Below are positions 1,206 to 27,117 of a DNA stretch of 64,000 nucleotides, in pieces. The notes beneath the pieces are model-generated. The model did no database searches. It worked only from the letters and a program-made list of their open reading frames with translations, and was not told where the DNA came from. Both the position numbers and the translations under genes were made by a program. This stretch comes from an uncultured Clostridia bacterium (lineage in GTDB: Bacteria; Bacillota; Clostridia; TANB77; CAG-508): positions 119 through 64,118 of the forward strand of contig CANQZP010000001.1 of the NCBI GenBank assembly GCA_947628395.1, read 5' to 3'. Within the stretch, counting starts at the first letter, position 1. Each line of letters begins with the position of its first letter.

Positions 1206-4200
1206 TTAATGTCTATCTACGATGAATTTCTTGATTACGAAAATTCCACCTGCAAGAACAATTCCTGCAATCATTATTACAAATGTATAATTATCCTTTT
1301 GTACCTCTTGAGGAGCAATACCAGTAGGATCAGTAAATGTTAATACATCAGTAGCACCTGCATCTCTTTCACCATTTAGATGTTTTACTTCTCCATTAAC
1401 AGATATCTCTTTAGCACCATCATAATCTTCTACTATTCTGCCTTCATCATAACCAGTAGCAGCTATATAAGCACCTCTAGAAGGTTCAGCATTACCAGGA
1501 ACACTATTCATATCCCTTCTACCTACAGTATTAGAATAACTTAATATCTCAGCAATATTATCGAAATTCAAATTATTAGAATCAGTTTCACCAGAAGTAG
1601 TCTTAGAAGTACTTATTCTAATTTCTCCACTAGTTGTACCTAAACCTTCAGCACTCTCAGGTACTAAGCTTGATAATAATGAAGCATTATAATTAATATC
1701 CTCAGAAACTACTATATTAGCTTTACCAGTTCCTTCAAAAGATACACCCTTATCATCAACAATCATACCATCAGTATTATATACAGAATCAGATAATAAC
1801 TCATTATTCTTTAACTCTTCTACAGTAATTGACTTCCAAGCATGATTTTCAGTATTTAAATTCTCTGTCTCATCCATAGCAATATCATTATCAATATAAT
1901 CAATAACTTGTTCTACATTAGTTGTTACTATCTTATCAGAAGAAGCAATTTTATTTGTATAGTAATTATTACCTACATAAGTACCATAAGTAATCTTACC
2001 AGATTTATATTCATCTGTTTCTTCTAATTCTAAAACCTTCGCTAAAATGTCATCAGATTTTGTATAATTTGCAAGTTCACCTGTCCAATCAACTTCAGAA
2101 GTATTTGTAACTTTAATCTTATAACCAACCTTAATTGATAAATTATTCAAATATGATTTTTCAATATTTACATATTTAACACCTTGAACATTGTTGCTTT
2201 CTGGTATATTTAATAATCTATCAGCTTGAGAAGATTTATCTACATCAATACTTCCATCATCATTAAATACAACTTTTAAGATCTCTTCTGAACCATCTAA
2301 TTTATATAAAGTAATTTCAGAAATCATTTTCTTAAGTTCTAATGCTGTCTCAGATCTCTTCTCTAAACCAAAGTCTATATCTTTTACTGTATAAGTATAA
2401 CTTGCTTTTCCATCAACTAATTTCATTTGACCATTTTCAATAAAGTCTTCTGGCTCAATCTCTAAATTCATCTTAGCAGTATTAGCAACCATCTGAGTAT
2501 TAGCAATTAAATCATTATGATTATTACCATTATCAGCACTCTCTAAAACTGTACCAACTTTATTTCCAATTGTTCTAGAGTAAGCTACAACTTTCATTCT
2601 TTGAAGCTCATAATCTCTAGCATCAGAAACTCTAGATTTATTTACATCAGCAGTAGATTTAATATCTTGCCATTCTTGATTTAAATCAGTCATACCTGCT
2701 TGATAAGCAGTATTCTTATAATCTTGACCATTGTATTTAACAACATCTTCTTTGTTACCATATTTAAATCTTACTACATAGTTTCCTGCAAGTACACCCT
2801 TAAAGTTATATACACCGTCATTTCCAGTAACTACATCTAATTTATAATTTGACATATCACTATCAGTTAAACTAAAGTATTTCTTAATATCCTCTTCTGT
2901 CCAAATCTTCTCATATTCAATTCCATCAATATTAATCTTTTCAACTAATTGAACATCTATATTTGGTATTGTAGTCTCACCATTATCAAAGATTCCATTA
3001 CCAACCTTTTGTCCATAATCAATAGTCTCAGTTTCATTATCTTCCCAAACAACACCATTTATTTCTCTCTCAAAATCATTTAAAACTATTCTTGCTGCTG
3101 GTGCTGATTCTGTTTCATCTTCATACCAAGCCTTGTCAGTAACTTTATTTAAATCAATATTATCAGGAGCTGAATCTCTATCTATTCTACCTGCAACTGT
3201 ACCATCAGTATTGTAACTTGAATAACTTGCAATTTCAGCTACATTATTCTTTTCACCTAATAATTCAGATTCCCTAGTACCATTTTTAATACCATTTTGA
3301 TTTACTTCATAAGTTACAAACAATTGTAATTGTTCACCAGATTTTAATTTTATTCCATTAAATGCAGTTATATTTCCTTGTTTATAACTACTATTTTTGC
3401 TTTGTTGTTCAGCCGTGTTCCAACTAAAGTTATCCATACCATTTGAAGTATAATCATATTTTGGAACATCTTCTCTTCCAATAACTCTATAGTAAGATGG
3501 TTCTGCTACAACTTTAGCAGTTCTATTAGTTCCATCAAATATATTAGCAGTTTGATTTTCAGTTATTAATGTAAATGTCTTATCATAGTAATCATTAATG
3601 CTATTTATAACCATATCATAAGTTCCTTCATTGAAAAGAGAAATTTTATAAGTTAAATATAATTTAAGTTCTGTATCACCTTTTATGGCCTTTACTTGAT
3701 CACTAGATGTCTCATATACTTTTGATCTATATTCATAATCAGAACTATATAATCCTACTGTATAATTAGCAGTCTTAGCGTTTTCTAATTGAATATTTAA
3801 GAATTCAGCATATTCATCTGATTCAAAATCAACTAATGAATTATATTTCTTAGTAACTTCTTTTTCATTTACAACTATATTAGCTTTATATAAATCTTTA
3901 GAAATACCTAAATCAGATTCTTGTCTGTATTTAACAGCTAAATTAATATGTAACATATAATTATAAATTGTATAATATTTAGTCTTTGTAACTTTTCCGC
4001 TCTTTTCAACTGTTTGAGTTACTTCATCAGCATCATCCTTTGTAATCTTATGATTTACTGGGAAGTAAAGTCCAGCATTTGCTGTAGAAGCATCTATTTT
4101 ATATTGATCTAAAATATGTCCATTTCCATCAATAGTTACAAGTGAAGATTTTCTCTTACTAGCAACATCATTTGAAACTGTTTCAGAAGTATAATCTAAT

Positions 4201-6305
4201 TTCATATCTCCAGCATATCCTGTAGTATTTCCTTGTTCATCAATAGGATTTCCACCTGTGATAGTTTCAAATTTTTGATTAAATTTAGCTCTAATATCAC
4301 TATTTTCCTTTGCTAAAGAGTCTTTAGAATATTTACTATCTTTATCAGCTCTTGAAGCATTTATATAAGTTGCTACATCACCATTTGCAGTAGGTAGAAC
4401 TGCAGATGATGTATAATTTTGTCCATCATATTTAAATACTACATCATAAATAATTTCATCATCATTCTTTTTCTCTGTACCAGGAACTAACATTTTTGGA
4501 ATTTTATAATTACCATTTTCATCAGTATATATAGGGAATGTTAATTCCTTTTCTCCAGACTCATCATATATCTTAGCTAATTCTCTACTTGTTTCTTTTC
4601 CTGAAGAATCTCTTGATACTTTATATACATAAACTTCAGCATTTTTATATCCTGATTCTCCTTCATCACGTTTACCATCTACTAAACTTCCATTAGCTTT
4701 GTCTTTTTCATTATCAATCCAAACCTCACCTGACATAGGAATTGTAAGTTCTATTTCATCCTCACCATCACCATCATCATCATCGTCGTCATCATCGCCA
4801 CCATCTGGTGTATATGGTGGTGTCTTATCTGTGTCATATGGAGGAGTTGGTGTAGCTGGTGGTATTGGTTCATCTGGTGTATTTGGTTCATCAGGTACTG
4901 GATATCTTAATATACCATTAAATAATGAATATGATGCATCTTCATACCATCTAGCAGCCTCTAATCCTAAAGAAAATGGTTGTGATCTTCTATTATCTAT
5001 TGCTGTACACTCTAAAGTATGAATATATGTTGGGAATAATCCATCAGAAGCCACTTCTGTTTTAGGAGTCCAAGATACAATATTATATGTACCTTTTAAA
5101 TTCTCATAAGTAGCACCAGCATTCATATATTTAAAGTCAACTTTAATATCACTAATTTTAGTTATATCTTCCATATAATCTAAACGAATATAGAATTCTT
5201 CACCATCATGTGGATATTCAGCAAGTGCTCCAGCTTCTTCTCTTACATTTTTATATTCTATATCCCATTTAGAATCATCGATTTCAACTTCTTGAGAAGA
5301 ATTTCCATTTACTTTTGTACCTTTAATAGTCATATTAGAAATTCCTGAAAACATTACTTCTCCTCTATCAGAAGAGTTTGTTACCCATTCTTGATAATTA
5401 ATACTAAAAGGTCCAATTAAATATTGTCTTCTCTCTGAATCATATCTTACTAAAGCATTATTCTTATTTGAAGATACATTAAATTTAATTTCTGGAGCAG
5501 GTACTGTTACTGTTTTACCATTTACAGTTACAGTTTTATTAGTAGTTCCTGATCCATTTCTTACACTATTTAAATAAATTTCAAAAGCTTTTGCTTCACT
5601 AGAAAAACTATTTTGTTTTACAGGAGTACCTTTACTACCTGCAGGTGTACTCCACCAAGCTTGCTGTACATAAGTATATGGGAAATAATCACTACCAACA
5701 GAAGCTGTTTCAATATAGAAATAATCATTTCCTTCTTTAAGTACATAATCTTTTGGTTGACCATTATCATCTATATCTACTCCATATACAGTTTCACCAT
5801 TAATATTCATTTCATAAGAACTATTTATTTCACCTGTATATTTTCTATTAGTTCTATTAAAAACAGTTGCTGTATTTCCATTAGTATTTTCAGTCATCTC
5901 AGATAATATATAAGCTTCCTCTGGAACTGCAGTTACAGGTCCACTACTTGTATATCTACCTAAAGTTTTACTAGTTGTAGCACTATATGGATTTCTTCTA
6001 TATCCAACCTCTCCAGTAGTAAAAGCTATTTCATCTTCTTCTGGAACAGGTATTGCTCTTGAATAGTCACCTGATGTAACTACAGTAGAAGCTTCTCCTG
6101 GAAGAGCTATATCATGTCCAGAACAAAGTAAGTTAAATTGTTTAATTAAATCATTATAAGTTATAACTGGATATCCTGAAGGGTAACCAATACCTTCTGA
6201 CGCCATTTCAGTAGTAACAGTTGCAGTTACATGATATCCAATAACAGCTAGGACGGTAATTAATATAAATATTACAATTTCTAAAAATATTTTCTTGCGA
6301 TTCAT
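1206..6305 (-). CDS. Giant secreted cell-surface protein (A-type) with SdrD-B/Cna-B-like repeats, a Pro-rich/poly-Asp linker, and a C-terminal FTDPTG motif followed by a TM helix and basic tail
   Basis: ~1700-aa ORF. Likely start at ATG 6305 with RBS aaggaggtg, 2 nt after the upstream gene's stop. N-terminal signal/TM. Motifs D.N.NG..D and GNYYV(V/A)F are typical of SdrD B-like domains. C-terminus is TDPTG + hydrophobic stretch + KKFIVDRH. Paralog of the C-terminal third of the 3392-aa protein. Confidence 0.8.
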   Translation of the reverse strand: MNRKKIFLEIVIFILITVLAVIGYHVTATVTTEMASEGIGYPSGYPVITYNDLIKQFNLLCSGHDIALPGEASTVVTSGDYSRAIPVPEEDEIAFTTGEVGYRRNPYSATTSKTLGRYTSSGPVTAVPEEAYILSEMTENTNGNTATVFNRTNRKYTGEINSSYEMNINGETVYGVDIDDNGQPKDYVLKEGNDYFYIETASVGSDYFPYTYVQQAWWSTPAGSKGTPVKQNSFSSEAKAFEIYLNSVRNGSGTTNKTVTVNGKTVTVPAPEIKFNVSSNKNNALVRYDSERRQYLIGPFSINYQEWVTNSSDRGEVMFSGISNMTIKGTKVNGNSSQEVEIDDSKWDIEYKNVREEAGALAEYPHDGEEFYIRLDYMEDITKISDIKVDFKYMNAGATYENLKGTYNIVSWTPKTEVASDGLFPTYIHTLECTAIDNRRSQPFSLGLEAARWYEDASYSLFNGILRYPVPDEPNTPDEPIPPATPTPPYDTDKTPPYTPDGGDDDDDDDDGDGEDEIELTIPMSGEVWIDNEKDKANGSLVDGKRDEGESGYKNAEVYVYKVSRDSSGKETSRELAKIYDESGEKELTFPIYTDENGNYKIPKMLVPGTEKKNDDEIIYDVVFKYDGQNYTSSAVLPTANGDVATYINASRADKDSKYSKDSLAKENSDIRAKFNQKFETITGGNPIDEQGNTTGYAGDMKLDYTSETVSNDVASKRKSSLVTIDGNGHILDQYKIDASTANAGLYFPVNHKITKDDADEVTQTVEKSGKVTKTKYYTIYNYMLHINLAVKYRQESDLGISKDLYKANIVVNEKEVTKKYNSLVDFESDEYAEFLNIQLENAKTANYTVGLYSSDYEYRSKVYETSSDQVKAIKGDTELKLYLTYKISLFNEGTYDMVINSINDYYDKTFTLITENQTANIFDGTNRTAKVVAEPSYYRVIGREDVPKYDYTSNGMDNFSWNTAEQQSKNSSYKQGNITAFNGIKLKSGEQLQLFVTYEVNQNGIKNGTRESELLGEKNNVAEIASYSSYNTDGTVAGRIDRDSAPDNIDLNKVTDKAWYEDETESAPAARIVLNDFEREINGVVWEDNETETIDYGQKVGNGIFDNGETTIPNIDVQLVEKINIDGIEYEKIWTEEDIKKYFSLTDSDMSNYKLDVVTGNDGVYNFKGVLAGNYVVRFKYGNKEDVVKYNGQDYKNTAYQAGMTDLNQEWQDIKSTADVNKSRVSDARDYELQRMKVVAYSRTIGNKVGTVLESADNGNNHNDLIANTQMVANTAKMNLEIEPEDFIENGQMKLVDGKASYTYTVKDIDFGLEKRSETALELKKMISEITLYKLDGSEEILKVVFNDDGSIDVDKSSQADRLLNIPESNNVQGVKYVNIEKSYLNNLSIKVGYKIKVTNTSEVDWTGELANYTKSDDILAKVLELEETDEYKSGKITYGTYVGNNYYTNKIASSDKIVTTNVEQVIDYIDNDIAMDETENLNTENHAWKSITVEELKNNELLSDSVYNTDGMIVDDKGVSFEGTGKANIVVSEDINYNASLLSSLVPESAEGLGTTSGEIRISTSKTTSGETDSNNLNFDNIAEILSYSNTVGRRDMNSVPGNAEPSRGAYIAATGYDEGRIVEDYDGAKEISVNGEVKHLNGERDAGATDVLTFTDPTGIAPQEVQKDNYTFVIMIAGIVLAGGIFVIKKFIVDRH

Positions 6306-6306
6306 A

Positions 6307-9300
6307 TTAATCCACCTCCTTTTTTTCAAAATACCATTTAATCTTAAACCTATTCTTTCTGATTACTATTAATATCGTAATCGCAATTATTGCTATAACT
6401 ACTATAGCAGATATATAAATTAATGTATCACCAGTATTTATAGATAAGATTGCATCTGCCTTTCCAAAATCATCTTCATTTTGAGCTTTATTATTTGGAG
6501 TTGAATCTCTATCTGAAATACCAAGTTTGTTATAAGCTACAGATATTTCAGCTATATTATTTACAATACCAGTATTATTTTCTGTCATTTCCTTAGTTAG
6601 AATCAATGTAACAGTCTTTTCTTGGCCTTTAACTAATGGTGTATTAGCCAATTCTTCATTATAAAGATTTCCATCAGAACCCTCATACCAATTTGGATTT
6701 AGTTCTGTAGTAAATTCCATTCCTTCTGGCATATAATCAACTATTTTCTTAGCATATCCTTCTACATCGCCTTCATTTTTTACAGTCAATTTATATTCAA
6801 CAATAACTTTTGTACTAGATAAATATTTTCCTGGTATATCAATCTTAGCTAAAGTTTGATTATCAAAATCATAAGCTTTAGTTCCATTATCATTTTGAAC
6901 AGTTATTTTTGAAATAGTCTTATTCATTGATAAATCAAATATACTAGCAGCAATTAAACCAATATTTACATTTGAAACACTACCATTAGAAATTGTTATT
7001 GTATCAGTAACACCAACATTTCTAGCAGTACCATTTTCTTCTATTTGTGAACTAATAACATCTGAATTTAGATTTTCAGTTACATTTTCTTTCTTATAAT
7101 CTGCTAATCCATATCTACTAGAGTTATAATAAAATACTACATAATAATTTCCATTTGGTAAATTACTAAATACATATTCTCCTGAACTTGATGTTGAAAC
7201 TGTTTTTACTTTCTTTCCAGTAGAAGCATTATATACACTAGCCTCTATTCCTTCTAATCCAACATCGCCTTCATCTTTTTGTCCATTTTGATTTGAGTCA
7301 AGCCAAGCTGTACCAGTTATTTTATATTTTGATTCATCATTAACACTAATATTTTGAATCTCAGTGGTATTGTTACTATTATTAGTTTGTCCATTTATAA
7401 AATCATTATCTTGAACTGTTTCTGAATTAACTGCTGATTTTTCAATTATATTAGTTACTTTATTTGTATTAACAGTATCTGAATTTGAACTCTCTACTTT
7501 AGCAACATTAGAAACCGTTCTTTCTTTTTGAGCTATATTATTCGCAGTAGCAGCTACATTAACTGTAAGTTCACTATTAGGAGCTATACTTGTATAAACT
7601 ATAGTATCTTCATTTCTAGAAATTGGTCTTGAAACATCAACTCCGTCTATCTTATAACTTAAACTCTTTACATTTAACTCTTCTGGTAAAAGATCTGTTA
7701 CTTCAACTTGGTTTGCTTGTACAATACCTTCATTCTTAACAGTAATACTATAATCTACAACTTCACCTTCTTTTAAATATTCACCATCTTGAAGAGAAGA
7801 TTGTTTAACTACTAATTTAGGTCTAGCTAAAGTTTCAGATACATCACCTGTATAATAATTCTCTGAATTAACAGTTACTTTTGAGTTTGTAGATATTTTA
7901 TCTTCATATGTATTTCCAGATAAATTACCAGCTACAGCTATTAAAACAACATATTTTGTAGAACCACTCTTAATATTATCAATTGTCCAAGTAACCTTTC
8001 TATTATCCATATCATAATTACATCCATTTGTATTTTTTACTAGATTTAAGTCTTTGTCAAAATCTTGAACATAATTTTCACTATATTTTAATAAACTTGG
8101 TAAGTCTTTTTCTACTTTTACATTTTGTAAATCAGAATCTGATGTATTCTTTACAGCGATTTTATATACAATCTCATCATTTTCCTGAATAATTTCAGAA
8201 ATTGTTTCAGTATATTCATCAGTTACAACTGTAGCATTTTCTATTGGATTTACAATTTCTTCTGATTCTAATGTCTTAGCTAAATCTTTAGCAGTTACAT
8301 CAGTTTTCCATACAAGCTCATTATTATCTTCAGATAATTTATTTACTTCTACGAAAAATTCTGCTGTCTTTGTCTCACCTGGTTTAATTTCATCTACTTC
8401 TATTTTATTTTCTTTTCCGTCTTTATACTTCCATCCTTTTTCTTCATAAATAGAACCTTGTTTTTGATATTCTACAAAACTTGTACCATTAGGAAGCTCA
8501 GTCTTTGCTACAACATCTTTTGCAGTTTCTTCACCAGTATTTTTAATACTTACTGAATATTTAATTTTTTCATACTCTTTTACAGATTCACCATTTCCTA
8601 CATTTACTTTAGTCTCTATAGATAAGTTAGGACCTTTTCCTGTAGTAAGACCTACTAAATCTGGAGTAGCAACTTCCATATTTTCAGCAACCTCAGTTAC
8701 ATTATTAAATATAGCTGCAAAAGAACCATAAATATTATTATTATGTTCTAGATTTCCTGGAATCTTATATTCATAAGAAAATCTTAAAACATCAGAAGGA
8801 GCCATCTCATAATTATTAGTAACTATTAAATATGATTTTACCTTAGAAAAATCAGTTACATCAGTAGTCCATCCATTTTCGCTATTTTCTAAGTCATCTG
8901 TTGCCATTCCATTTTCTGAATAATAAATAGTAACATTTGCTTTATTTTCAGGGTTTGGAACAAGTTGTGAAACTAAAGTTGTATCAACTGTAGTTCCTAA
9001 ATCCTCACCTGTTTTTATATCTTTATTTCCTTTAAAAGGAATTCTTCCAAGTATCTTTACATCTCTGCAGATATTTTGATTATTATTCATAACTAAGATA
9101 TCCATAGTAGCTACTTTTTCTTCATCAAATATTTCAATCTTATCAGTAACTTTTCCTTGTTCTACTGAAGTTATCTTAGAATTATTATCATTATAGTTAG
9201 ATGTTGAGTTTACTGTTATAACACCAGTTGGAGCTGTATAAGCAATCTTAGTATCAGACGAACCTACATCTCCATTTTTATTAGTATAATCAGTAACATC

Positions 9301-17700: not shown

Positions 17701-20700
17701 ACTTCTGCAGCTCCATCTACATTAGAACTATGTAAGGTAGTTTTGAAATCATAATTATATTTATTATGTAACTTCAATACTAATTTATTACCAGCAATTT
17801 CTTCCACAGCTACTGGTTGATAAAATTCCAATTCCCCATTATCTGTATTATAATTTTGTACATGAAATCTATATTTTCCATAATCAGCAAAATATTCTGT
17901 ATCTTCTTTACTTCCTAATAATGCAACTATTGATATATAAAAATCTCCTGCTTCTCCTCTGTCTTCATATCCATTTATTAATCCTTCAAACCAAATACTA
18001 TATACGCTATTAAAATAAGTTCTATTAAACTCTAGTTGTACACTTGAGTTACTCTTTTTAATTGTTACATTATTTTTAATACCTTGTTTTGTATTATCCA
18101 CAAATTTTAAGTTTTTTTCATCAAAATTTCCCTCTACTGGTATCGTGATCGTTATTTTTCCATCATTATCTTCATTTACTGTTGGCTCATTTTTTAATTT
18201 GGCACCATAACCACCTTGAGAATTCAAATAATTAGCAATTTCTATCTTAAAAGAATCATTACTCCAAGAAGTACTTTCAGCTTCTTTATTTTTTGATGAA
18301 ACATATTTATTAAACTTGTCTGAATCAATGTTTAAAGATAAATTATAATTTACAGTTGTATTTATATCACCACTTTGAATTTTAACACCTAAATTCTCTA
18401 CATTTATATTAGTTGTACCAGATAATTCTATTCTTATTTTTTTATTATCTACAACATATATACTATATGGTTTATCATTTCCTGTATTAGTAATATTTTC
18501 TATTCTATCTCCTGTTCTAGGATGCATATATACTACAATTTTACCATTTTCATAAGTAATCTCACTAATTTGTAGATCTATATCACTTAAAGTAGCACCA
18601 TTACTTTTACTTAGAGTACCCTTTATACCCATATCATCATTATTTTTTGTAGTATTTCTTTTACTAGCCGACTGTTTTTTATTTATAGTTATAGCATTTA
18701 TTTTTTTATTTCCAGATGTAAAATATCCTTCTTCAAAAGTAACAGTTTGACCATTTTGCAATAATTCCTTATTAAAAGTAATAGTTTTAGGATTTACGTT
18801 ATTATTTATAGTATAAGAAACATTATCCTTAGTTCCTTCTGTTTTACCATTCTGGTCTTTAATGTTAGCTGATGTATTGTATATTTTATAAGTCATATAA
18901 GTTGAACTATCTAAATCAGCTGTTTCTGTAACGCACTTTGCAATTACTGTATATTTTTTAGAATTTTCATTTCCATCTGATACAGTAATTGTTCCACTTT
19001 CTCCAGTCATTATTAATGTATAAATGCATTTTTCTCTATTATAATCATAAAATGTTTTTCCTTTATTTTCTATATTTTCAAATTTTAATATTGCATTCGA
19101 ACTAGAAATTACTGAAAAATTAGATTTATTATTTTGCTCACTCAATTTCAATTGAATAACATCATTTTTTATTTCAATATTATTACCTTTAACCTCTAAA
19201 TTCAAATCTACTTTACTATTTTGGCTATTATTATCACCTATAGTAATTGATTCAATTTTTTTCTTACGATCATTAGTTATAAAATATCCTCGTTCAAAAG
19301 TAACACTTCCTTTATTTTCAAAACCAGAAAATATAATATAATAAAGATCAACATCGCTTGTATTAGTATGTTTTTCTATTTTATAATTAACTCCATTATA
19401 TGAACCTTCAGTTTTACCATTTTTATCTGTTACTGCACCAACAGTATTATATACTCTATATTGAATTTCATTATCAGATTCTTTGAATCTTTCTACACGT
19501 GAATCTACATTTACACTATATAAAGCTGTAGTTGAGCCATTTTTTACTTTTATAGTTCCATCCTGAGGACTAGTTAAATAACATTGCCATGTTCTTCTAT
19601 CAGTTAAAGAATCTAAAGCTGCATCTTTTCCTACATGTATACCTGTTCCCTCTAATTCTGTTTTTTCTTTTACTTTTACATAAAATTTTTGATTATTTAA
19701 TTGACTATTCAAATCCCATAAATTAAGATTAATAACTTTTCCATTAATTTCTATATTGTCACTACCAGCATATAGTTTTACTTTTTCATTAATATCTGAT
19801 TCTTGATTATCAACATTTTTACCGTCTTTATTAATTTCTTCAACTGGTTTTGAAAGATTATCTGATCTGAAATATCCTCTTTCGAAATTTATAGCCTGAT
19901 CTTTTTCAAAACCAGTAAGTATAATGTAATAAAGATCAATATCGCTTGTATTAGTGTGTTTTTCTATTTTGTAGTCCACCCCATTATACGAACCTTCAGT
20001 ATTTCCTTCTCTATCAGTTACTGCACCAACAGTATTATATACTCTATATTGAATTTCACTATCAGACTCTTTAAATCTTTCTACACGTGAATCTACATTT
20101 ACACTATAAGTAGAAGTATTAGAACCATTTTTTACTGTTAAAATTCCATCTTGAGGTTTAGTTAGATAACATTTCCATGTTCTTCTATTATTTGAAGAAT
20201 CTAAAGCCGCATCTCTTCCTACATGTACGCCATCTCCTGTTAATGTTGCTTCATCATCTATTTTCAATAAGAAAGTTTGATTATTTAGATTTTTAGTTAA
20301 ATCCCATAAATTAAGATTAATAGTATCACCATCAATTTCTACATTCTCATCATTAGAATATATCGTTGCATCTCCAGAATTACTATCTAAAGCAGCAATT
20401 TGTCTAATATCATCTGCTTTAGCATACATATCAGTTGTGTCAACATGTTGCTCTTGCATTGCCAAAATACTATCTGTTTTTAAATAATTATAACCAAGCC
20501 ATGTAGATTTTGGACCATCAAATTCTAATCTATATTCATCAGTTTGACCCTCATTATATACATCAATATATTCGCTATTATCACTTTGTTTTATTTCATT
20601 ATAAGAATCACCAGTATAAGTTAAATTATCATATTTAGCAGTTAATAAACCTAAATCTGTACTTCCTAAATTAGATACCAGACTAATACTTTTTATATTT

Positions 20701-21905
20701 GTTATTCTATCATCAGCTAAAATATCAGAGACATCACCATTTGTAATACTACTAGCTTTTATCTTTACATTAAATTTTTCTCCGCTATATGGAATTGGAT
20801 ATCCTCCATCACGTGACTTTCTTGAGATTGAACCAGAACCCACTTGTGTAATAGGATGATTACCATTATAGTCACAATGAACAGTAGAAGGGTGTTGCCA
20901 TTTCTGCTTATTTAATCTTTCATGTTTATCTTCATCTTGGATTTCAATATCAAAATCCCCTCTTGCAAAAGACATAGTTTCTTCCGTTCCATTAGCTTTA
21001 GAGCAAACTAATTCTATATCATCAGGAAAAGTATTTATTATAAATCTAATACACTTTTTCTCTGTTGAACCATCTGGCTTTGGGATTGGTATATGAGTAT
21101 ATTTCTGAAGTACAAATAGATTTGAAACTAAATCTGAGACTAAAATATAATCTTCACTATTTTCTTTTACAACAGAAACATTACCATTAAAATCTATCCT
21201 ACACATTGAATCAACTACTTTATTTAAATCATCATCACTATAATTATTCAGATTTTGTTCATTACGACCAGTATTTGCTATAAGTTTTTGCCTTATTTCT
21301 CCCATATAATTAGAATATTCTTTTGCTTGATCAATTAAATTTTGAACATTTTCTTCCTCATCAACATCATAATCAATTGTAGAATCATCAACGCCTTTTA
21401 CTAATATAAGCCATGCCTTTTGAACAACAGTATGCCAATAATTTAGATTTTCAGAACCAGACATTCCTATATTGGCTCCATCATTCATATACATAAGAAA
21501 AGCTTCTATATCAGTAGCTGTATTATCTTTATCATCAAGTTTAAATGAGTGATCATCTTTATCTTTATCCTTTTTTCTATATACACTATTTAATAGGTTT
21601 GAGTCCGAATATAAATTTCCTATTCTGCTACGTCCTCTATCCTCTATTTGGTATAATTCATTATCTTCTATTTTAGCTATTGTATCTACTATATCCCAAT
21701 TACCACGTCTACGACTTCCACTCCAATATTTCTTACGAGTAGTTCTTGGATTTATAGGAGAGTGCTCAACTATATCATATACACGATTTTTTTTATTATT
21801 AATTGTTACATTTGTCCATGCTCCTATGATAGCTGGAGATAATATTATTGATAAAATCAATGAAATCATTAATATTAAAAGTATTTTTTTACAACATTTC
21901 ATCAT
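11727..21905 (-). CDS. Giant (3392 aa) secreted cell-surface protein (A-type) with internal ~195-aa tandem repeats, SdrD-B/Cna-B-like domains, and a C-terminal LTEPTG motif followed by a TM helix and basic tail
   Basis: 10.2-kb uninterrupted ORF with RBS agaggtga. Its ATG overlaps the upstream gene's stop (ATGA-type coupling). N-terminal signal peptide. C-terminus TEPTG + hydrophobic stretch + RNRKKRKMEE. The C-terminal ~1100 aa are homologous to the 1707-aa protein. Confidence 0.8.
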   Translation of the reverse strand: MMKCCKKILLILMISLILSIILSPAIIGAWTNVTINNKKNRVYDIVEHSPINPRTTRKKYWSGSRRRGNWDIVDTIAKIEDNELYQIEDRGRSRIGNLYSDSNLLNSVYRKKDKDKDDHSFKLDDKDNTATDIEAFLMYMNDGANIGMSGSENLNYWHTVVQKAWLILVKGVDDSTIDYDVDEEENVQNLIDQAKEYSNYMGEIRQKLIANTGRNEQNLNNYSDDDLNKVVDSMCRIDFNGNVSVVKENSEDYILVSDLVSNLFVLQKYTHIPIPKPDGSTEKKCIRFIINTFPDDIELVCSKANGTEETMSFARGDFDIEIQDEDKHERLNKQKWQHPSTVHCDYNGNHPITQVGSGSISRKSRDGGYPIPYSGEKFNVKIKASSITNGDVSDILADDRITNIKSISLVSNLGSTDLGLLTAKYDNLTYTGDSYNEIKQSDNSEYIDVYNEGQTDEYRLEFDGPKSTWLGYNYLKTDSILAMQEQHVDTTDMYAKADDIRQIAALDSNSGDATIYSNDENVEIDGDTINLNLWDLTKNLNNQTFLLKIDDEATLTGDGVHVGRDAALDSSNNRRTWKCYLTKPQDGILTVKNGSNTSTYSVNVDSRVERFKESDSEIQYRVYNTVGAVTDREGNTEGSYNGVDYKIEKHTNTSDIDLYYIILTGFEKDQAINFERGYFRSDNLSKPVEEINKDGKNVDNQESDINEKVKLYAGSDNIEINGKVINLNLWDLNSQLNNQKFYVKVKEKTELEGTGIHVGKDAALDSLTDRRTWQCYLTSPQDGTIKVKNGSTTALYSVNVDSRVERFKESDNEIQYRVYNTVGAVTDKNGKTEGSYNGVNYKIEKHTNTSDVDLYYIIFSGFENKGSVTFERGYFITNDRKKKIESITIGDNNSQNSKVDLNLEVKGNNIEIKNDVIQLKLSEQNNKSNFSVISSSNAILKFENIENKGKTFYDYNREKCIYTLIMTGESGTITVSDGNENSKKYTVIAKCVTETADLDSSTYMTYKIYNTSANIKDQNGKTEGTKDNVSYTINNNVNPKTITFNKELLQNGQTVTFEEGYFTSGNKKINAITINKKQSASKRNTTKNNDDMGIKGTLSKSNGATLSDIDLQISEITYENGKIVVYMHPRTGDRIENITNTGNDKPYSIYVVDNKKIRIELSGTTNINVENLGVKIQSGDINTTVNYNLSLNIDSDKFNKYVSSKNKEAESTSWSNDSFKIEIANYLNSQGGYGAKLKNEPTVNEDNDGKITITIPVEGNFDEKNLKFVDNTKQGIKNNVTIKKSNSSVQLEFNRTYFNSVYSIWFEGLINGYEDRGEAGDFYISIVALLGSKEDTEYFADYGKYRFHVQNYNTDNGELEFYQPVAVEEIAGNKLVLKLHNKYNYDFKTTLHSSNVDGAAEVKNSPDSNGDKMLEVTFDLIKLVGSTSKHLYIEVVTNNPYSSSLIEMCGITLTINPEYNGTYEATDGYYAAKIENYEVLCDIGFSKGTGGKDILSYTESLNFVDNKNTGEVVFDFILNAIIPSPNPSVQVATAFDDKQVATEWGSSAPDRGIKKIDIIGNNIVQITYDATIFWGESENITIDGITGLAVGKWNEIKINAGEGLSDVRIDVSVYKFNADEWQGDISVTNIGKDTEFPEVQNEKNDNNDWLEIKKANLNDNAGYEEYIGDGSDIEQSEIMKDFELGGVPFSNLQSVEVRKKGYLVGEDGENFVKLEFEDENAISYKINYRYDSERYYNQNWFTGDGWKDAAISLKEEDNANLKNGIVYDNKAVFAVERAGQSVITVMLKQDGKIYYKLIIVYIPQLYVGSIIDASGDENVPSRDKWHSDSGNITGLSLIGDDNLVGQYEVALNVEEKEFIFYNITESVELSDYTYTEGNSQLIQNSNSEWKSTKKAWEDAVNDDTNIRINGDSAYPTERRISEIYNLDVSETQDISGFDSATNKNYEEITTGSYNGKHRLKWAFRDSGVVEDTDKGYTLGSTMFSIFLISDQTPSTQSKVKDVVYIKEIAQWKPDHGRSIISEIGARLTIPEISGQIWVENTEDDKTSSADSVYGKFDEKDSTDVKGKVKAVLCRYDSKDTNYKEIVMDLEINDIGKFSVKNVMPPLSIDSSHDYYYGIEYIYDGQKYEPTEVLSVDGTSVNESTTENGIDEAKNRVNTLINNRPLYDSYENTSFASESYDDRKNFDIKFNGITSAGEVNYNTGDTDGSNKSPYTLKNDLPYIKEEDSQAKYHTEPDNYPSDGLPAVATLTSQHPMLSSTKTINMQYPLLADRQSGYHLMQKSNTIEVKRKNGNPIDTHYPIVDYFNKINFGLVERDESDLSIHKDVYDARVVINEQFLNYPYNSLLLQPDSDGVIKSLSKTYNLGLYSSDVNFSSNVYSAADAIKELKKNTELRVFVTYKTTIYNESVSKACVNELSEYYDPTFTLVNNNNYTDADNKLKVTDGDGLYSDVMVKKDPSKLNEGELERASQLMANFSYYRVIKADNSDIKYQFNKTGDLEGYNDSLSGDVEWTTITPPPDITYNKATTSSLKDVILESGDRIEVFTAYEIDKDGYNDMVAKALETGEVQPDRPGLTKGSAKDPTSPVENIKACISEISNYSTFYTRRKNDTSVYGTGKNSGKVDRDSAAGNANIGKILEGNLQYVEDDTSNAGKLLVNIYAEQKDERSISGLVWSDSDDGANPGDGEYKDGENTIPDVDVALIEKIKGTDNNEYEFAWNVNEDDGRVFVSGQQGIVGALNISTNSTNGYTFSNIPPGIYAVRFTYGNKEKNINYNGQDYKNTSYHMGNAVQDEWHNLQNGTINDINTRMSDARDYEPQRLRTIAYSRTVSEENATVLNTDTYTGEKIKNTWMRADTAKLNIEVEKQNNLGYSNTAGYYDKTVISDEGVFDHLYKIEGLDFGIEKRPETKITLDKELKNITLTKNDDSSVIFRADIKGIKEDPNDSTKTIFDIDTETGVATDMMMSLVSAGASQGFHYIQIEDSYLNNLSVKLGYNIKVTNESDVDYVGKDLAGMTKMEKIYELAAGIEQSDEYKTGHGIQYGTGVKVYNVNGEKNSLGNYYYTHNINNSTDDVVTTTVDQVVDYIDNDIGLNEVENTNTENHSWNPATVNNVTSVGDDFKGLLSADSLTEGKLQDYKDISYFGTGKSNVVLSTNENIKHKQSGDNLTGGNEYHTYLKDITGKSLTKDETGTISETQARYKVDTTIDTVDKYNPDLTKALIPISASLDDSSKSTASIDITMSKTVSSGGDSESLRFDNLAEILVYSNTAGRIDVEAIPGNAIEIARKAISDGGFGGSSFYWAAGYSSIKNETGEVLDGDKDSREEDETLPERDADATEYVTLTEPTGLSVSMETSNKMLIVTIIATATTAVAIVIIPIVTIVYDRNRKKRKMEE
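18700..20450 (-). repeat. Intragenic tandem repeat: two near-identical ~585-bp units (about 19290-19874 and 19875-20460) plus a divergent third unit (about 18700-19290)
   Basis: Protein repeats ...INLNLWDL...GRDAALDS..RRTW.CYLT.PQDG...SVNVDSRVERFKESD.EIQYRVYNTVGAVTD...ERGYF occur twice at >80% identity. DNA blocks at 19320-19380 and 19920-19980 are nearly identical. Confidence 0.75.
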
Positions 21906-24900
21906 AATATCACCTCTTTTCCTTTATCAATACGCCTTTTGATTACATACCCAAGCAGTAACAAATTAATCAGAACAGTCAAAATAATCATTGTACTTAT
22001 CAATCCTCCACCTGTTCCAATTGAAATGATAACATCAGCCTGTCCAAAATCATCTTCACTAGAAGAAGCATTTCCTGGAGTTGAATCAATATCAGTAACA
22101 CCTAATTCATTACTGCTACTAACTATTTCTGCTTTATTACTACTAATTCCTGTATTAGATTCAGTCATAGCTTTAGAAACTATTAGAGTGATTTCTTTAG
22201 TTTCTTTTGGATTAATTATAGTATTTGCCAATTCTTCATTATATGCATTACCATCTTTTCCAATATACCAACCAGGATTTATCTCAGTATTTAAAGAAGC
22301 ATCTTTGGGAAGGTAATCTACAATTTTTGAAGCAGTTCCTGAAACTTGTCCATTATTAGTTACTTTTATCTTATACTCAATATATACAGTTGATGAATTT
22401 AAGTCTTTAGATTTGATTTCTGTTTTAGCTAAAGTAGAATCATTTCCTTGTACTACATTTGTTCCTTTATCATTTTGAACTGTTATTTTAGAAACCGTTT
22501 TTTCTAAAGATAAGTCAAATATATTTCCTTGTATCAAGCCAATATCTATATTACTTATACTTGAATCTACAATCATAATTGTATCTGTTTTTGATTGTCC
22601 ATTAGTAAGAATAACATCAGAGTTTTTATCACTAGATACTCCAGACTTTTTAAAGTCTGTTAAAGAATATACTTCAGAATCATATTCAAAAACAGCATAA
22701 TAGTTTCCTTCTGGAAGGTTAGGTAAAATATATCCACCAGCACCATCAGTAACCACTTTTCTAACTAAAGAATTAGAATCAGCAGTATATAAATTAACAA
22801 CAATATTTTCTATACCTTTTTCACCAGAATCTCTACTACCATTTTTATTAGAATCATTCCATGCTGTACCTGTTATTTTATAATCACCAGTCATTCCTGA
22901 ATTACCATTGCCATTTAATCCAACATTAGAATTTCCTGAGTTATTTCCATTATTGGAATTGCCAGAATTTCCAGATATATTATTTTCTTGAATAATTGTT
23001 TCTAAAGTGTTTGTTTTTTGCAAACTTGTACCCGTAGAAATAGTAATATAATTACTTATTACTTTTTCTCTTTCTGATATATCATTTGTCATACATATAA
23101 TTCTTATTTTAGCTTTTTCATTAGAACGTAAGATACCATTATAATTTAAAGTATTATTATCTACACTCATATAATTAGTTTGTCCATTTTTTTCAAACTC
23201 ACCTGAAATTAGTTTTAATTCTTCTGGAAATATAGAGTTTATATTTAAATCATATATATCAATAGTATTTGTATTAACTAAATCCAATATATATTCAACT
23301 TCTTGATTTTCTTTTACATAATTATTTCCTGTAGAATTATAATAATTTGCTTCTACTAATTTATTTTCTACTCTATATTTTAATGTATTTGATTCATATT
23401 CTTTAGATAGGTCTTCAGAAGAAATATTTGCTTTAATTTCAAATTCTTTTGAAGGTTCTGAAGTTCCTAATTCAGGTTTTACTGTTAAATATAGTTTTTC
23501 AACTTGAGCTCTATTTATTTCATTTATCTTCCATATTACTTTTCTATTTGAGTCATTATATTTTCCATCGCCAACACCAGATGAAGTAGCTTTAACAAAA
23601 GATAATCCTTCTGGTAAAATCAAAGAAACTTCTGAATTAGTAAGCATAGCACCTGTTTTATTAACAACATCTATCTCTAGTTCTAGTTCTTTTTCAGGAA
23701 CTATAGTTCCACTATTTTTATCTTTGTCATAATTATCTCCTAATATTACTAAATCTACTTCTGAAGGTACATATTTTTTAGAAGTAGTATCTTGAGTTTG
23801 ATTCTGACTTGCTGTTAAAAATGGTATGCTTGGAGAACTTTCTAATATAGAAGTAAACATTCCAATTTGAGCATCTTCATTATTATTTGTATTTGGATTT
23901 TCTTCTTCAGCCTCTTCTTCTGTCTCTTCAACCTCAGCAGGTTCTTCTGTAACAAGTCCAACCTTTTGTGCTTCAACTAATTTAGTAGCAATATCAGTAT
24001 CAAAATATGTACCAAAAGTACCATATATATTGCTTCCTAAATCTAATTTTTCTGGTATTTCAAAATTATAATTAAATACTAAGCTTTCACCTACATTAAT
24101 ATTTCCTTCTGGAACTATTAAGAAAGATTTTATATTATCAAGATTTTCTGGTTCTTTTATCCAACCATTATCAGGGTTTTCTATCTCTCTTGTTGCTTCT
24201 CCGTTTTCTGAATAATATACAGAAAATTCTTTATCTCCACTTACTTCCTTTATTCCATCTAACATTTTTACATCAATATTAGTACCTAAATCATCAGAAT
24301 TTATCAAAGTTTTGTTTTCTTTGAATGCCATTCTTCCTAAAACAGAAGGGTTTTGCATAACTTCTTCACCGTTATTTATTATAATCAAGTCCATACTTGC
24401 ATCCTTTTTCTCAGAGTCATCTGGAATAATTGCAGTTTTTTCGCCTTGATTCATAGACATAACTGTTACATTGTCAGTATTTTCAGAAATTCTTTGACTA
24501 TTAACTATACCATTTGCTCCAACAAATTGGATATTTAGATATTCTCTTGCTGTTCCATCAACTATTTCTGATCCGTAATTTGTAGCATTTGGATTAATAT
24601 AATGTAATTCAATTTTAGCTTCTTTATTTGGAGTATATAAATCTGCTTGTAAATCTGTTTTTATAACAATAGAAGTACCTTTTTCTATATCTCCTTGACT
24701 AAAGCTTGTTTGAGTACCTTGTAATTTAAGAACAATAACTACTTGTCCTTGTTCATTTACAAAACTTCTAGACTCAGCAATTTTTAGTTCATCATTACCA
24801 TATAGTAAGTTAATATCTTTTATATTAACTGTTTGTATTTCTTTTGGTAAAACAATCTCAAACTCAGGATTAATAAACATATCACTTGATACGCTTGAAT

Positions 24901-26803
24901 TATTTAAATTTATATTAAATTGAACATCTTCATTATTTACTAATGTACTTAGCGTTCCTCTAGACATCTCCATATTAACTCTTGTAGAAGTTCCGTTTAA
25001 AACTGTTTTTATTTCTTTTGTACCTAATTCAGATACAATATCATCATAAGTTGCAGTTGCTATATATGTATTACTTATAGCAGTGAATGCTACAAGAGAT
25101 TCTTTTGTATAATTACTTTTAGAAATTGCTTTAGTGTTTTGGATATTTAATATTCCCTCTTTTTCAGGATTATTAATTCTTATTAAAATTTTTCCTATTT
25201 TATTTGTATAGCTTAATACTATATTTCCTTCTTCATTTGTTTCAGTATCTTTATTTAGAGTAATTAAATTTTCTCCTTTATCATTTAATATTTCTAAATT
25301 ACCATTTTCTCCAATTATATTAACTAGATTTTCTTTATTTAAAATAGTAGTTTTATAATATGTTTCTGTTCCATTTTCAGTTGTTGTATTATATTTAGCT
25401 CCTGTAGAATCTTGATAGCTTTCGTCTTGCTCGTTTATATCTATTCTTTTTATGCTATTTGCTTTTGAAATGTTTATACCTATTTCATTTTTATATTCTG
25501 TTTCATAGAAATTTTCTTGTTTATTTACATTTGCATATAAATATCCTTTACTAATTTCATTAGTTAAATTAGATACATCATAAGTTATTTTGTTTGTATT
25601 TGCATCATCTAATTTATATTCTTGTTCAATTAAACCTTGTTCTTGCTTAGTATCTAAATTATTAAATAAATCAATACTAGCCTCTATAGTAGATTTTATT
25701 ACTGGATTTTCAATGTTTTGAGCATTATTAAATGTCATCTCTATTAAATACTCATCTTTTCCTTTTGTATTTCTATACTTTCCGTCTGTTTCTTTGTTTT
25801 CTATGTTTATTCTTAACCTTCCATCATCTTCTAGACCAAAATTCTCTTCTGTAAATTCTACTTCTTGACCTTGTCTTCCATTTGTAAATGCTGTGTTTTT
25901 TGCCATTACAATTATTTTTTCTATTTCTGGTTTTTCTTTTCCCTCTTGAACTTCTAAGTCTGGTAAAGTAATTTTTAAATTTGTTTGTTTTACTGGTAAA
26001 ATAATTTCACTATTTTTTTCTTCTACATCTACTTTTATTTGTACAATAGCATAATCTTTTTCATCTTGTTTATATTTAATATATTTTTCAATATTACTAT
26101 TAATAGATATTTGTCTGTTATTTTCTATTTCGATTTTTACGTTTCCTTGTTTTTCTACTTTCTCTTCTTCACCATCTTCATTAACATAGCTTCCAACTAA
26201 ACTTATTTTTGTTCCATTTTGTAAATTTGCTATATTTACTGACTCTTGTTTTTTGATTTCTAATGGAATATTTAATTCATATTTATCTTTTGCATCTATA
26301 GTATTTAATTTAATAATTCCATTCTCTACAGATTGTACTATTGGGCTTTCTAATGTTCCTAAATTAAATATTTGATTTTCTAAATCTTCTATCTGTAACT
26401 TAGCATTTTTCAAATATCCAATATCTTTTATTCCTACAGTTATTTTAAGAGCATATTCAATATTTACTTTTTCAGGAGATTCAGGTTCTGGAGAATTTTG
26501 ATCCACTTCGTTTTCTTGTGGCTGATTTATTTCTTCTTGCTTAGGATTTTCTTCATCAGTAGTTTCTGCTTGTTCCTGATTTTCTTCGTTTTCATCTTTA
26601 GGAGCTTCTTCATCAGTTTGCAGTTCTTCTTCCTCCGAATCCTCTGTAATTTTTACTATTTCCGCATTAAAAATTACTTGATCTTCTTCGTCACTAGCAT
26701 ATATGACATAGATGTTACTTAAAGTCACCATATAAGACATCATCAAGCAAATTATAAGCAATACAGATATTAGTTTTTCTCTTACACTCTTAATTTTTTG
26801 CAT
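21902..26803 (-). CDS. Giant secreted cell-surface protein (B-type) with an acidic low-complexity N-terminal region, an Asn/Gly/Ser linker, a C-terminal SdrD-B-like domain, and an SIGTG motif followed by a TM helix and basic tail
   Basis: Probable start at ATG 26803 (MQKIK...) preceded by ggaggt; the ORF track extends to 26857. Signal peptide present. C-terminus YKITGTAWNDSNKNGSRD...GNYYAVFEYD, then ...IISIGTGGG + hydrophobic stretch + KRRIDKGK. Paralog of the 1663-aa protein. Confidence 0.8.
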   Translation of the reverse strand: MQKIKSVREKLISVLLIICLMMSYMVTLSNIYVIYASDEEDQVIFNAEIVKITEDSEEEELQTDEEAPKDENEENQEQAETTDEENPKQEEINQPQENEVDQNSPEPESPEKVNIEYALKITVGIKDIGYLKNAKLQIEDLENQIFNLGTLESPIVQSVENGIIKLNTIDAKDKYELNIPLEIKKQESVNIANLQNGTKISLVGSYVNEDGEEEKVEKQGNVKIEIENNRQISINSNIEKYIKYKQDEKDYAIVQIKVDVEEKNSEIILPVKQTNLKITLPDLEVQEGKEKPEIEKIIVMAKNTAFTNGRQGQEVEFTEENFGLEDDGRLRINIENKETDGKYRNTKGKDEYLIEMTFNNAQNIENPVIKSTIEASIDLFNNLDTKQEQGLIEQEYKLDDANTNKITYDVSNLTNEISKGYLYANVNKQENFYETEYKNEIGINISKANSIKRIDINEQDESYQDSTGAKYNTTTENGTETYYKTTILNKENLVNIIGENGNLEILNDKGENLITLNKDTETNEEGNIVLSYTNKIGKILIRINNPEKEGILNIQNTKAISKSNYTKESLVAFTAISNTYIATATYDDIVSELGTKEIKTVLNGTSTRVNMEMSRGTLSTLVNNEDVQFNINLNNSSVSSDMFINPEFEIVLPKEIQTVNIKDINLLYGNDELKIAESRSFVNEQGQVVIVLKLQGTQTSFSQGDIEKGTSIVIKTDLQADLYTPNKEAKIELHYINPNATNYGSEIVDGTAREYLNIQFVGANGIVNSQRISENTDNVTVMSMNQGEKTAIIPDDSEKKDASMDLIIINNGEEVMQNPSVLGRMAFKENKTLINSDDLGTNIDVKMLDGIKEVSGDKEFSVYYSENGEATREIENPDNGWIKEPENLDNIKSFLIVPEGNINVGESLVFNYNFEIPEKLDLGSNIYGTFGTYFDTDIATKLVEAQKVGLVTEEPAEVEETEEEAEEENPNTNNNEDAQIGMFTSILESSPSIPFLTASQNQTQDTTSKKYVPSEVDLVILGDNYDKDKNSGTIVPEKELELEIDVVNKTGAMLTNSEVSLILPEGLSFVKATSSGVGDGKYNDSNRKVIWKINEINRAQVEKLYLTVKPELGTSEPSKEFEIKANISSEDLSKEYESNTLKYRVENKLVEANYYNSTGNNYVKENQEVEYILDLVNTNTIDIYDLNINSIFPEELKLISGEFEKNGQTNYMSVDNNTLNYNGILRSNEKAKIRIICMTNDISEREKVISNYITISTGTSLQKTNTLETIIQENNISGNSGNSNNGNNSGNSNVGLNGNGNSGMTGDYKITGTAWNDSNKNGSRDSGEKGIENIVVNLYTADSNSLVRKVVTDGAGGYILPNLPEGNYYAVFEYDSEVYSLTDFKKSGVSSDKNSDVILTNGQSKTDTIMIVDSSISNIDIGLIQGNIFDLSLEKTVSKITVQNDKGTNVVQGNDSTLAKTEIKSKDLNSSTVYIEYKIKVTNNGQVSGTASKIVDYLPKDASLNTEINPGWYIGKDGNAYNEELANTIINPKETKEITLIVSKAMTESNTGISSNKAEIVSSSNELGVTDIDSTPGNASSSEDDFGQADVIISIGTGGGLISTMIILTVLINLLLLGYVIKRRIDKGKEVIL

Positions 26804-27117
26804 CTTGTACCTCCAATAATACTTTGAGTCGCCAGTTGCCAAACATTTTCCCAGCATGCTAATTTTTATTTTAATAACTTTTTATTTACTGTCAATCTAC
26901 TTAAATTTTCTTTTTTCTTTATTTTTTTATTTTTATTTTTTCTTTTTTTACGGAAATTAGTAGTTTTTGTCGATTATTACATTTAAATTAAATTTTCAAT
27001 TCAATTATATTTTTTTATCTTTTTTGAGATACATAATTCTTATTATGTACCTACCATAAAGACAAAAAATATTGTTTTTCCATTTTTAAAAATCAACAAA
27101 CAGAAAGCCCAAATTAA

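Follow-up and report, generated by a model that had tools for sequence, protein, structure and literature searches.

What is the function of four giant genes that lie as two paralogous pairs on the minus strand of a 64,000-nucleotide stretch of DNA from an uncultured Clostridia bacterium (contig CANQZP010000001.1 of assembly GCA_947628395.1; the whole stretch is hereafter the window), and how would their products be held at the cell surface? An original prediction, made from the letters of the window, had described them as a duplicated two-partner adhesin or fiber module with an unusual anchoring signal. The domains, the pairing, and the conserved C-termini described below support such a system of surface proteins, with a presumed adhesive role; the reading that we favor, with somewhat better than even confidence, is that each pair encodes co-expressed fibrillar adhesins that are anchored by a sortase-type mechanism.

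The four intact open reading frames (ORFs) are located where the original prediction had placed them, in a window with a GC content of 28%; ORFs of 5–10 kb cannot be produced by chance at this GC content. In each pair, or module, a B gene is followed by an A gene (B→A):

21902..26806, minus strand: B1 gene, the stalk partner of module 1 (ORF, Shine-Dalgarno (SD) sequence GGAGGT, promoter, and Pfam matches)
11727..21905, minus strand: A1 gene, 3392 aa, with a unique head region of ~2000 aa, an A-type stalk, and a C-terminal signal
6307..11298, minus strand: B2 gene, 1663 aa, the stalk partner of module 2 (ORF, Pfam matches, and matches to SdrD B domains in the PDB)
1206..6305, minus strand: A2 gene, 1699 aa from the ATG at 6305, with a thioester-like head, a stalk, and a C-terminal signal

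Two of the starts differ from those of the mechanical ORFs. The B1 ORF extends to 26857, and the more likely start is the ATG at 26806 that is preceded by GGAGGT; the C-terminus of a 1633-aa library protein is identical to that of B1. The A2 ORF (1206..6329, 1707 aa) opens with a TTG at 6329 that is probably not the start, because the homologs and the deposited 1699-aa NCBI protein begin with MNRKK. The exact B2 sequence is also present in NCBI.

A1 and A2 are 31% identical over ~1390 aligned columns (A2 528–1688 vs A1 2027–3363, E 2e-132), as expected from the claim that the A-type proteins share a C-terminal region of ~1100 aa. For the B-type proteins, the similarity had been assigned to the N- and C-termini; these are indeed alike, but the identity (30–39%) spans nearly the entire length of B1 and B2. 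In mutual comparison, no relationship was found between the A and B proteins. The two modules in the window are ~37% identical to each other, whereas module 2 and its orthologs are 64–74% identical; by this measure, the two modules are old paralogs.

Within each module, the stop codon of B and the start codon of A overlap or abut, each A start having its own ribosome-binding site, as had been noted from the sequence. The TGA of B1 and the ATG of A1 overlap (ATGA), with AAGAGGTG located 7–8 nt upstream of the A1 start; the TAA of B2 is followed by 1 nt and then by the ATG of A2 at 6305, with AAGGAGGTG upstream. The SD sequence of each A gene is embedded in the final codons of the B gene; with this arrangement, both proteins would therefore be made together from one mRNA. 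The putative transcription signals are:

26868..26895, minus strand: promoter-like site of module 1, TTGACA-16-TAAAAT (11/12), near-consensus σ70-type
11409..11437, minus strand: promoter-like site of module 2, TTGAAA-17-TATAAT (11/12), near-consensus σ70-type
11678..11716, strand not assigned: hairpin with a 16-bp stem that is flanked by T-runs and lies just past the A1 stop codon

The hairpin is likely a terminator that parts the two modules; because each module has its own promoter and the hairpin follows A1, the modules look like separate transcription units.

Related loci were collected in a scan of GTDB species genomes that yielded 81 fetched loci, 77 of them distinct. Wherever the DNA upstream of an A gene in these loci can be read, a B gene directly precedes it on the same strand, and the B/A junction ranges from −32 to +6 nt (73 complete modules); the claim of a two-partner module is, therefore, better founded than the window alone would allow. 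The partners also diversify together: pairwise distances for the C-terminal regions of B and of A are strongly correlated (Mantel r 0.855, p 0.001; 75 modules); the two genes are passed on and copied together. In ~9 loci, modules stand in tandem ([B A][B A]), and several metagenome-assembled genomes (MAGs) contain two to three modules of 10–15 kb; three loci per MAG were seen more than once. The modules occupy at least three unrelated chromosomal contexts, that is, beside hsp33, between ksgA and a GH94 gene, and beside spoIIE. Of the related loci, 31 have a B→A module immediately upstream of spoIIE (e.g., positions 13991..16486 of locus L057), and the spoIIE gene of the window (61501..63948) has no adjoining module; thus, the insertion sites differ between genomes.

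All 77 loci are from MAGs of uncultured gut Clostridia (Ca. Scatovivens, ‘uncultured Clostridia/Clostridium’, and a few labeled as Lachnospiraceae), with sheep, deer, rabbits, mice, chickens, and Hadza humans as hosts; one is in a circular HiFi genome of ~1.8 Mb (OZ006973.1), the sole complete genome recovered. A search of a collection of 5.8 billion proteins identified 59 homologs of A2, nearly all of them unnamed metagenome or MAG proteins. We found the module solely in these uncultured gut Clostridia (Ca. Scatovivens and relatives), which have small genomes of low GC content and on which the literature that we found consists of taxonomic or ecological papers.

These comparisons also decide whether the giant ORFs could be nonfunctional relics or chimeric misassemblies in a contig of a low-quality MAG. 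In favor of such an explanation, the window also contains several housekeeping genes with frameshifts (vide infra); however, the giant genes add up to 25.6 kb of unbroken reading frame in DNA that is rich in AT, their near-consensus promoters and SD sequences are in place, their residue conservation resembles that produced by purifying selection, and orthologous intact modules are present in dozens of independent assemblies, including the circular HiFi genome. We consider relics or artifacts to be extremely improbable; the comparative data effectively refute them.

The domain content of the B proteins is that of a rod. Both B1 and B2, and neither A1 nor A2, exceed the gathering scores of two Pfam families, DUF11/CLIPPER (PF01345) and SdrD_B (PF17210): B2 matches DUF11/CLIPPER in four stretches (2.8e-21, 76.4 bits) and SdrD_B once (1.5e-13, 51.3 bits), and B1 matches SdrD_B (9.6e-16, 58.4 bits) and DUF11/CLIPPER (2.1e-07, 31.7 bits). 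The regions that we distinguish in the B proteins are:

7024..7317, minus strand: SdrD_B (CnaB-type) domain of B2 (Pfam PF17210 1.5e-13; SdrD in the PDB 7.5e-14)
22538..22873, minus strand: SdrD_B domain of B1 (Pfam PF17210 9.6e-16)
8659..11196, minus strand: N-terminal rod of B2, residues 35–880, all-β, ~8 tandem sandwich domains

The B proteins also match crystal structures of SdrD B domains in the PDB. DUF11, now named CLIPPER, is a CnaA-like isopeptide stalk domain (PMC12617251). The rod domains are β-sandwiches of the CnaA/CnaB pilin-like type and resemble those of shaft pilins; the length of B is nearly constant across the family (1630–1840 aa, typically ~1650). B is, then, a rod of constant length that contains ~13 β-sandwich domains, with a single SdrD_B domain in addition to CLIPPER domains of the pilin-like/CnaA-like type. 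The original prediction had assigned SdrD-B/Cna-B-like repeats to all four proteins; at the Pfam thresholds this assignment is correct for B1 and B2 and does not extend to the A proteins, for which A2 has a sole, subthreshold match to CarboxypepD_reg and A1 has no match in Pfam or NCBIfam.

The A proteins vary in length across the family, from ~1650 to 3550 aa, and consist of a conserved stalk and a head:

1338..4748, minus strand: A-type stalk of A2, residues 528–1664, aligned with A1 2027–3339 at 31% identity
11889..15827, minus strand: A-type stalk of A1, residues 2027–3339, from the alignment with A2
4917..6239, minus strand: head domain of A2, residues 31–471 in the numbering of the 1707-aa ORF (family hidden Markov model (HMM) 7e-169; conserved C69, V-Q222-Q-A-W-W helix, and S-Q450)

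The stalk (~1100 aa) is conserved in 57/57 homologs. The head of A2, a domain of ~440 aa at the N-terminus that the family HMM identifies in 76 of the 80 complete A ORFs and that is lacking in A1, is the most interesting feature of the locus and was missed by the original prediction. Cys69 is retained in 52/53 head sequences, within [LF]C[CS]; Gln222, Trp225, and Trp226 are retained in all 53, within (V/I)QxAWW; and Gln450 is retained in 51/53, within SQxLA, where it is located in long predicted β-strands. A2 contains just two Cys in 1707 residues, one of which is the invariant C69. Thioester domains (TEDs) are characterized by three motifs (PMC6194298): [YFL]CΦζ has the bond-forming Cys, TQXXΦW is located on a helix, and ΦQζΦΦ, in a C-terminal β-hairpin near the Cys, has the bond-forming Gln. 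Because the first two conserved motifs of the head match these definitions and SQxLA is a candidate for the third, we describe the head as a candidate, divergent TED that is supported by its motifs and do not assign it to the family. In the AlphaFold2 model of the head (pLDDT 85), (V/I)QxAWW is on predicted helix 191–196, although its first residue is V/I and not the T of TQXXΦW; the top Foldseek match of the model is a class II TED (6fwy), which, with an E-value of 3.8e-3, is not significant. From its motifs, we judge the chances that the A2 head is a divergent TED to be evenly balanced. The conserved Cys was also considered as that of a cysteine protease; this assignment was rejected because no His/Asp partner is conserved and the His of PHxGEEFY is variable.

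The head of A1 is different: it contains ~2000 aa, lacks both Cys and a TED-like head, and has no match to the head family HMM, even with the filters off. Because the A1 head is both different and Cys-less, the two modules probably have different targets. The A1 head region also contains an internal duplication (19315–19614 and 19903–20202; period 588 nt; 87% nucleotide identity over 300 nt; unit of ~196 aa).

How would these proteins be exported and anchored? All four have a signal peptide that can be read from the sequence by eye, that is, without a predictor, in agreement with the original prediction: the n-region is basic, the core is hydrophobic, and an A-x-A-like site is present. All four also have a hydrophobic segment and a basic tail at the extreme C-terminus, preceded by an xTG motif:

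1206..1337, minus strand: C-terminal signal of A2, FTDPTG (1320..1337), spacer of ~10 aa, hydrophobic helix, and KKFIVDRH tail
11727..11888, minus strand: C-terminal signal of A1, LTEPTG (11871..11888), spacer, helix, and DRNRKKRKMEE tail
6307..6447, minus strand: C-terminal signal of B2, LSINTG (6430..6447), helix, and basic tail of 17 aa with the SD of A2 in its last codons
21902..22027, minus strand: C-terminal signal of B1, ISIGTG (22010..22027), helix, and basic tail with the SD of A1 in its last codons

In the A family, TG followed by a hydrophobic stretch ends 122 of the ~126 informative sequences, and ~118 read [FLI][TS][PE]PTG; next come a polar spacer of ~10 aa, the helix, and a K-rich tail of ~7 aa. 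PTG is retained in ~94% of the A homologs, many of which read SPPTG or TPPTG. In the B family, all 71 distinct tails end with [IL][SGT][VI]xTG in which TG is invariant, although the mean column identity of the B alignment is ~28%; the helix begins one residue later, and the tail is ~13 aa. The last residues of the B tail are also conserved (…GGV, …KEV) because the SD of the A gene is embedded there. An internal copy of the DUF11-like domain (~residue 1080 of A2) is not followed by TG; thus, TG is part of the terminal signal and not of the fold.

The B-type ending is not restricted to B proteins. An exhaustive HMMER search with the last domain and anchor of B2 identified 2711 clusters, 1184 of them at E<1e-30; most of the best 150 of the 2711 clusters have a B-type ending, and most are proteins of 1.6–1.8 kaa. 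In related genomes, other giant proteins (>1300 aa) that are neither A nor B end with [IV][ST][IV]xTG (e.g., ISTG, VATG), a helix, and a basic tail; three of these are:

2..4528 of locus L012: giant non-A/B protein with a B-type ending
2..4546 of locus L022: giant non-A/B protein with a B-type ending
102..4022 of locus L049: giant non-A/B protein with a B-type ending

The B-type signal thus occurs throughout the lineage, also outside of the B→A modules.

Two precedents help to place these motifs. The class B pilus sortase of Streptococcus pyogenes, Spy0129, accepts (E/Q/V)(V/P)PTG, including the VPPTG of the TED adhesin Cpa (PMC3019223), and the A motif [TS][PE]PTG has the same xxPTG form without being identical. 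SrtB of Clostridioides difficile accepts (S/P)PXTG (PMC4155245), which the motifs in the window (TDPTG, TEPTG, SINTG, and SIGTG) do not fit, as the original prediction had stated; however, the many A homologs with SPPTG or TPPTG are close to it. The description of the C-termini as noncanonical and sorting-like is, accordingly, half right: the xTG motifs are conserved, but they are less exotic than was supposed, given the xxPTG form and the wide occurrence of the B ending. With respect to other C-terminal sorting systems, a search of the four tails against NCBIfam at E<=10 yielded subthreshold noise on the helix (LPXTG, Loki-CTERM, and PEF-CTERM) and no other match, and the other systems were rejected. 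The order of xTG, hydrophobic helix, and basic tail is the layout of a sorting signal; cleavage by a sortase and attachment to the wall are the most likely mechanism.

Several results weigh against sortase-anchored, TED-headed adhesins. The TIGR01167 LPXTG_anchor model scores A2 at 12.9 and B2 at 14.1 bits, below its cutoff of 15.9, and does not match A1 or B1; the B motif has no proline, and its nearest precedent, the NVQTG proposed for C. difficile CbpA, was not cleaved by SrtB in vitro (PMC4155245); no wall-spanning, low-complexity linker precedes the motif; and PNG, PLG, or PFG replaces PTG in 7 of the ~126 A homologs. No sortase is found among the window ORFs of at least 100 aa, and no TLxTC-type signature occurs in any frame of the 64-kb window; the absence of a sortase that had been claimed for the window is thus correct but says little. 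Likewise, a weak check of the 77 related loci (81 fetched), which used a motif regular expression and BLAST with Staphylococcus aureus SrtA, found no sortase in the 10 kb on either side of a module. With respect to the A2 head, no thioester profile matches in Pfam at E<=10 or in NCBIfam at E<=0.01, and a profile of the 53-sequence A family matches nothing in the PDB at E<=10.

The missing proline and linker, the subcutoff scores, the seven substitutions (T to N, L, or F), and the lack of a sortase linked to any module are what would be expected of tail-anchored membrane proteins, in which the helix and basic tail are a permanent anchor, TG is a β-sandwich cap or the site of an enzyme other than a sortase, and no transfer to peptidoglycan occurs; a B helix that begins one residue past TG and a long B tail (~13 aa) that is conserved within subfamilies point in the same direction. 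We nevertheless regard tail-anchoring as unlikely, perhaps a one-in-four proposition: TG is invariant in all B tails despite the low identity of the alignment and is absent after the internal DUF11-like copies, the embedded SD accounts for the conservation at the end of the B tail, and the layout and spacing are those of classical sorting signals.

If a sortase is involved, would it join A to B? In a two-subunit, pilus-like fiber, a sortase would join the Thr of the A PTG to a lysine in the B rod and B would be anchored to the wall via its own xTG, forming a heterodimer of >3300 residues that is tipped by the A head. The obligate pairing and coupled translation, the two distinct classes of motif on the partners, the pilin-like rod domains of B, and the xxPTG form by which the class B sortase of S. 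pyogenes attaches Cpa to the pilus all speak for such a fiber. Pilus sortases are normally encoded within the pilus cluster; however, no sortase gene was found in or near any module, a YPKN pilin motif or E-box is present in 0/69 B and 0/81 A proteins, and each partner retains a complete anchor signal and its own long stalk. We consider this fiber improbable. The same low expectation applies to its boldest form, in which an unlinked, xxPTG-specific sortase ligates thioester-headed A to B and a second specificity anchors B through its proline-less signal. Such a ‘one shaft, one tip’ structure, a minimal pilus of two giant subunits, would be the main organelle with which a widespread lineage of uncultured gut Clostridia attaches to the host or to particles, with a class of TED that profiles do not detect.

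For the favored reading, co-expressed adhesin pairs, we propose the following scheme. The locus would be expressed as two independent bicistronic operons (promoter-B1-A1-terminator and promoter-B2-A2), and on the one mRNA of each module the synthesis of B, a pilin-like rod, would be coupled to that of A, an adhesin with a head. The two products would be Sec-exported, giant fibrillar surface proteins, with A presenting a variable head on its ~1100-aa stalk; the putative thioester head of the A2 type (~95% of the family) would bind its ligand covalently, and the ~2000-aa head of A1 would recognize a different ligand. A sortase encoded elsewhere in the genome would cleave after the Thr of xTG and attach A and B covalently to the wall, with a coat of paired adhesive fibers as the outcome.

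The modules are flanked by housekeeping genes: hsp33 is downstream; minC, pbp2, mreD, mreC, mreB, and radC are upstream; and uvrD/pcrA, tyrS, prfA, smc, an amidase gene, a hisS-like gene, acpS, and spoIIE are located farther on. The minD and minE genes are missing after minC. In the related loci, clustering of all flanking ORFs (81 loci) identified no conserved accessory gene, peptidase, or sortase; the recurrent neighbors are housekeeping genes that reflect synteny (spoIIE, ksgA, GH94, MGDG synthase, Mur ligase, and YpeB). Several housekeeping genes in the window are split, that is, mreB (two pieces), mreD (two), pbp2 (three), a ZIP transporter gene (two), and an HD-GYP gene (two), in these regions:

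29355..33868, minus strand: split genes
42272..43019, minus strand: split genes
52795..53743, plus strand: split genes

In the five frameshifts that were resolved (~33355, 30433, 30183, 42563, and 53213), removal of one C before GG[AT] on the coding strand restores the frame; the identity of the lesion in all five suggests a systematic assembly or base-calling artifact rather than independent pseudogenes. The argument that intact giant ORFs amid decaying genes imply selection was dropped because, if errors depend on the sequence context, the absence of lesions from the giant genes is unsurprising (p of ~0.14).

The spacer between the modules is 428 bp, and the repeat that had been described there as resembling miniature inverted-repeat transposable elements (MITEs) is present; however, it is a 19-nt, GC-rich palindrome, GGGCGATT(GAT/ATC)AATCGCCC, with a conserved flank of ~8 nt, that is not specific to the modules. 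It occurs at five intergenic sites in the window (zero expected by chance), with two inverted copies in the spacer and one upstream of B1:

3–21, 11526–11544, 11612–11630, 27198–27216, and 39687–39705: copies of the 19-nt palindrome

The MITE assignment was rejected because three of these sites are elsewhere; by its distribution, the palindrome is a genome-wide repeat of the REP (repetitive extragenic palindrome) type. Two other GC-rich families, a near-perfect hairpin of ~80 nt (TTCAGACAG-GGGGACGGAGTTATTTGTCTAAGAATT…, at ~28500–28580, 48855–48935, and 54910–54990) and the intergenic motif GGGCGGAGACAAGCCCCGCCCCTAC (at 1098, 28419, 29334, and 61495), may be terminators, REPs, or remnants of MITEs. 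Adhesins of C. difficile have cyclic di-GMP (c-di-GMP) riboswitches upstream; an Rfam scan of the whole window at gathering thresholds, in which a c-di-GMP riboswitch was sought, gave no match.

Ca. Scatovivens and its relatives are common uncultured inhabitants of the gut of humans, rodents, rabbits, ruminants, and chickens. Because several MAGs contain two to three of these large modules despite a small genome (~1.8 Mb for the one complete genome), the modules are probably a major part of the interface with the host or with food particles. The family offers a candidate new class of thioester, that is, covalent-binding, adhesin heads that is invisible to profiles, and it is a clear natural example of giant surface proteins whose pairing is obligate and whose translation is coupled. 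It also provides two strongly conserved non-LPXTG xTG signals, and naming the enzyme that processes them would improve the annotation of surface proteins across gut Clostridia. New tools for covalent protein ligation could also be derived from the heads, provided that these are reactive.

Of the known systems, the TIE/TED adhesins (BaTIE, EfmTIE86, CpTIE, SfbI, and Cpa) share with the A proteins a signal peptide and a head with a conserved Cys, a (T/V)QxxΦW helix, and a conserved downstream Gln; the stalk is likewise long and built of CnaA/CnaB-type β-sandwiches, and the C-terminus again has a motif, a helix, and a basic tail. The best, albeit not significant, Foldseek match of the A2 head is also to this group (class II TED, E 3.8e-3). 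Unlike these adhesins, the A2 head is not matched by sequence to any TED in Pfam or the PDB; its Cys and TQ-like motif are separated by ~150 residues, with large insertions; the A proteins are 3–6 times longer and end with [TS][PE]PTG instead of LPXTG; and A is always downstream of a dedicated partner gene, B.

The FCT pilus of S. pyogenes (Cpa, VPPTG; major pilin, EVPTG; class B sortase, Spy0129) resembles the modules in the xxPTG motif on its TED-bearing adhesin (PMC3019223), in a partner that is built from pilin-like β-sandwiches, and in co-transcription of the genes. It differs in that the A/B locus has no gene for a sortase or SipA, no pilin motif, no E-box, and no sign of polymerization, and in that A and B are giant multidomain rods, as compared with pilins of 30–80 kDa. 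Like A and B, the substrates of C. difficile SrtB are surface proteins of clostridia that carry xTG motifs other than LPXTG; SPPTG or TPPTG is present in many A homologs, the B motif [SGT][VI]xTG resembles NVQTG, and the C. difficile sortase is not linked to its substrates. The four motifs in the window, however, are outside of (S/P)PXTG.

Finally, the CLIPPER (DUF11)/SdrD fibrillar adhesins have a stalk of tandem β-sandwiches (PMC12617251) like that of B, which passes both Pfam thresholds; B differs from them in having no recognizable adhesive head, a near-constant length, and an invariable coupling to A. The obligate, translationally coupled B→A pairing across an entire lineage, the profile-invisible TED-like head, and the B-type signal, which lacks proline and is shared by most of the best-matching related clusters, are not described in the literature that we found; the building blocks from which the modules are assembled (fibrillar adhesins, CLIPPER/SdrD_B stalks, TIE-type heads, and xTG signals in Clostridia) are all known.

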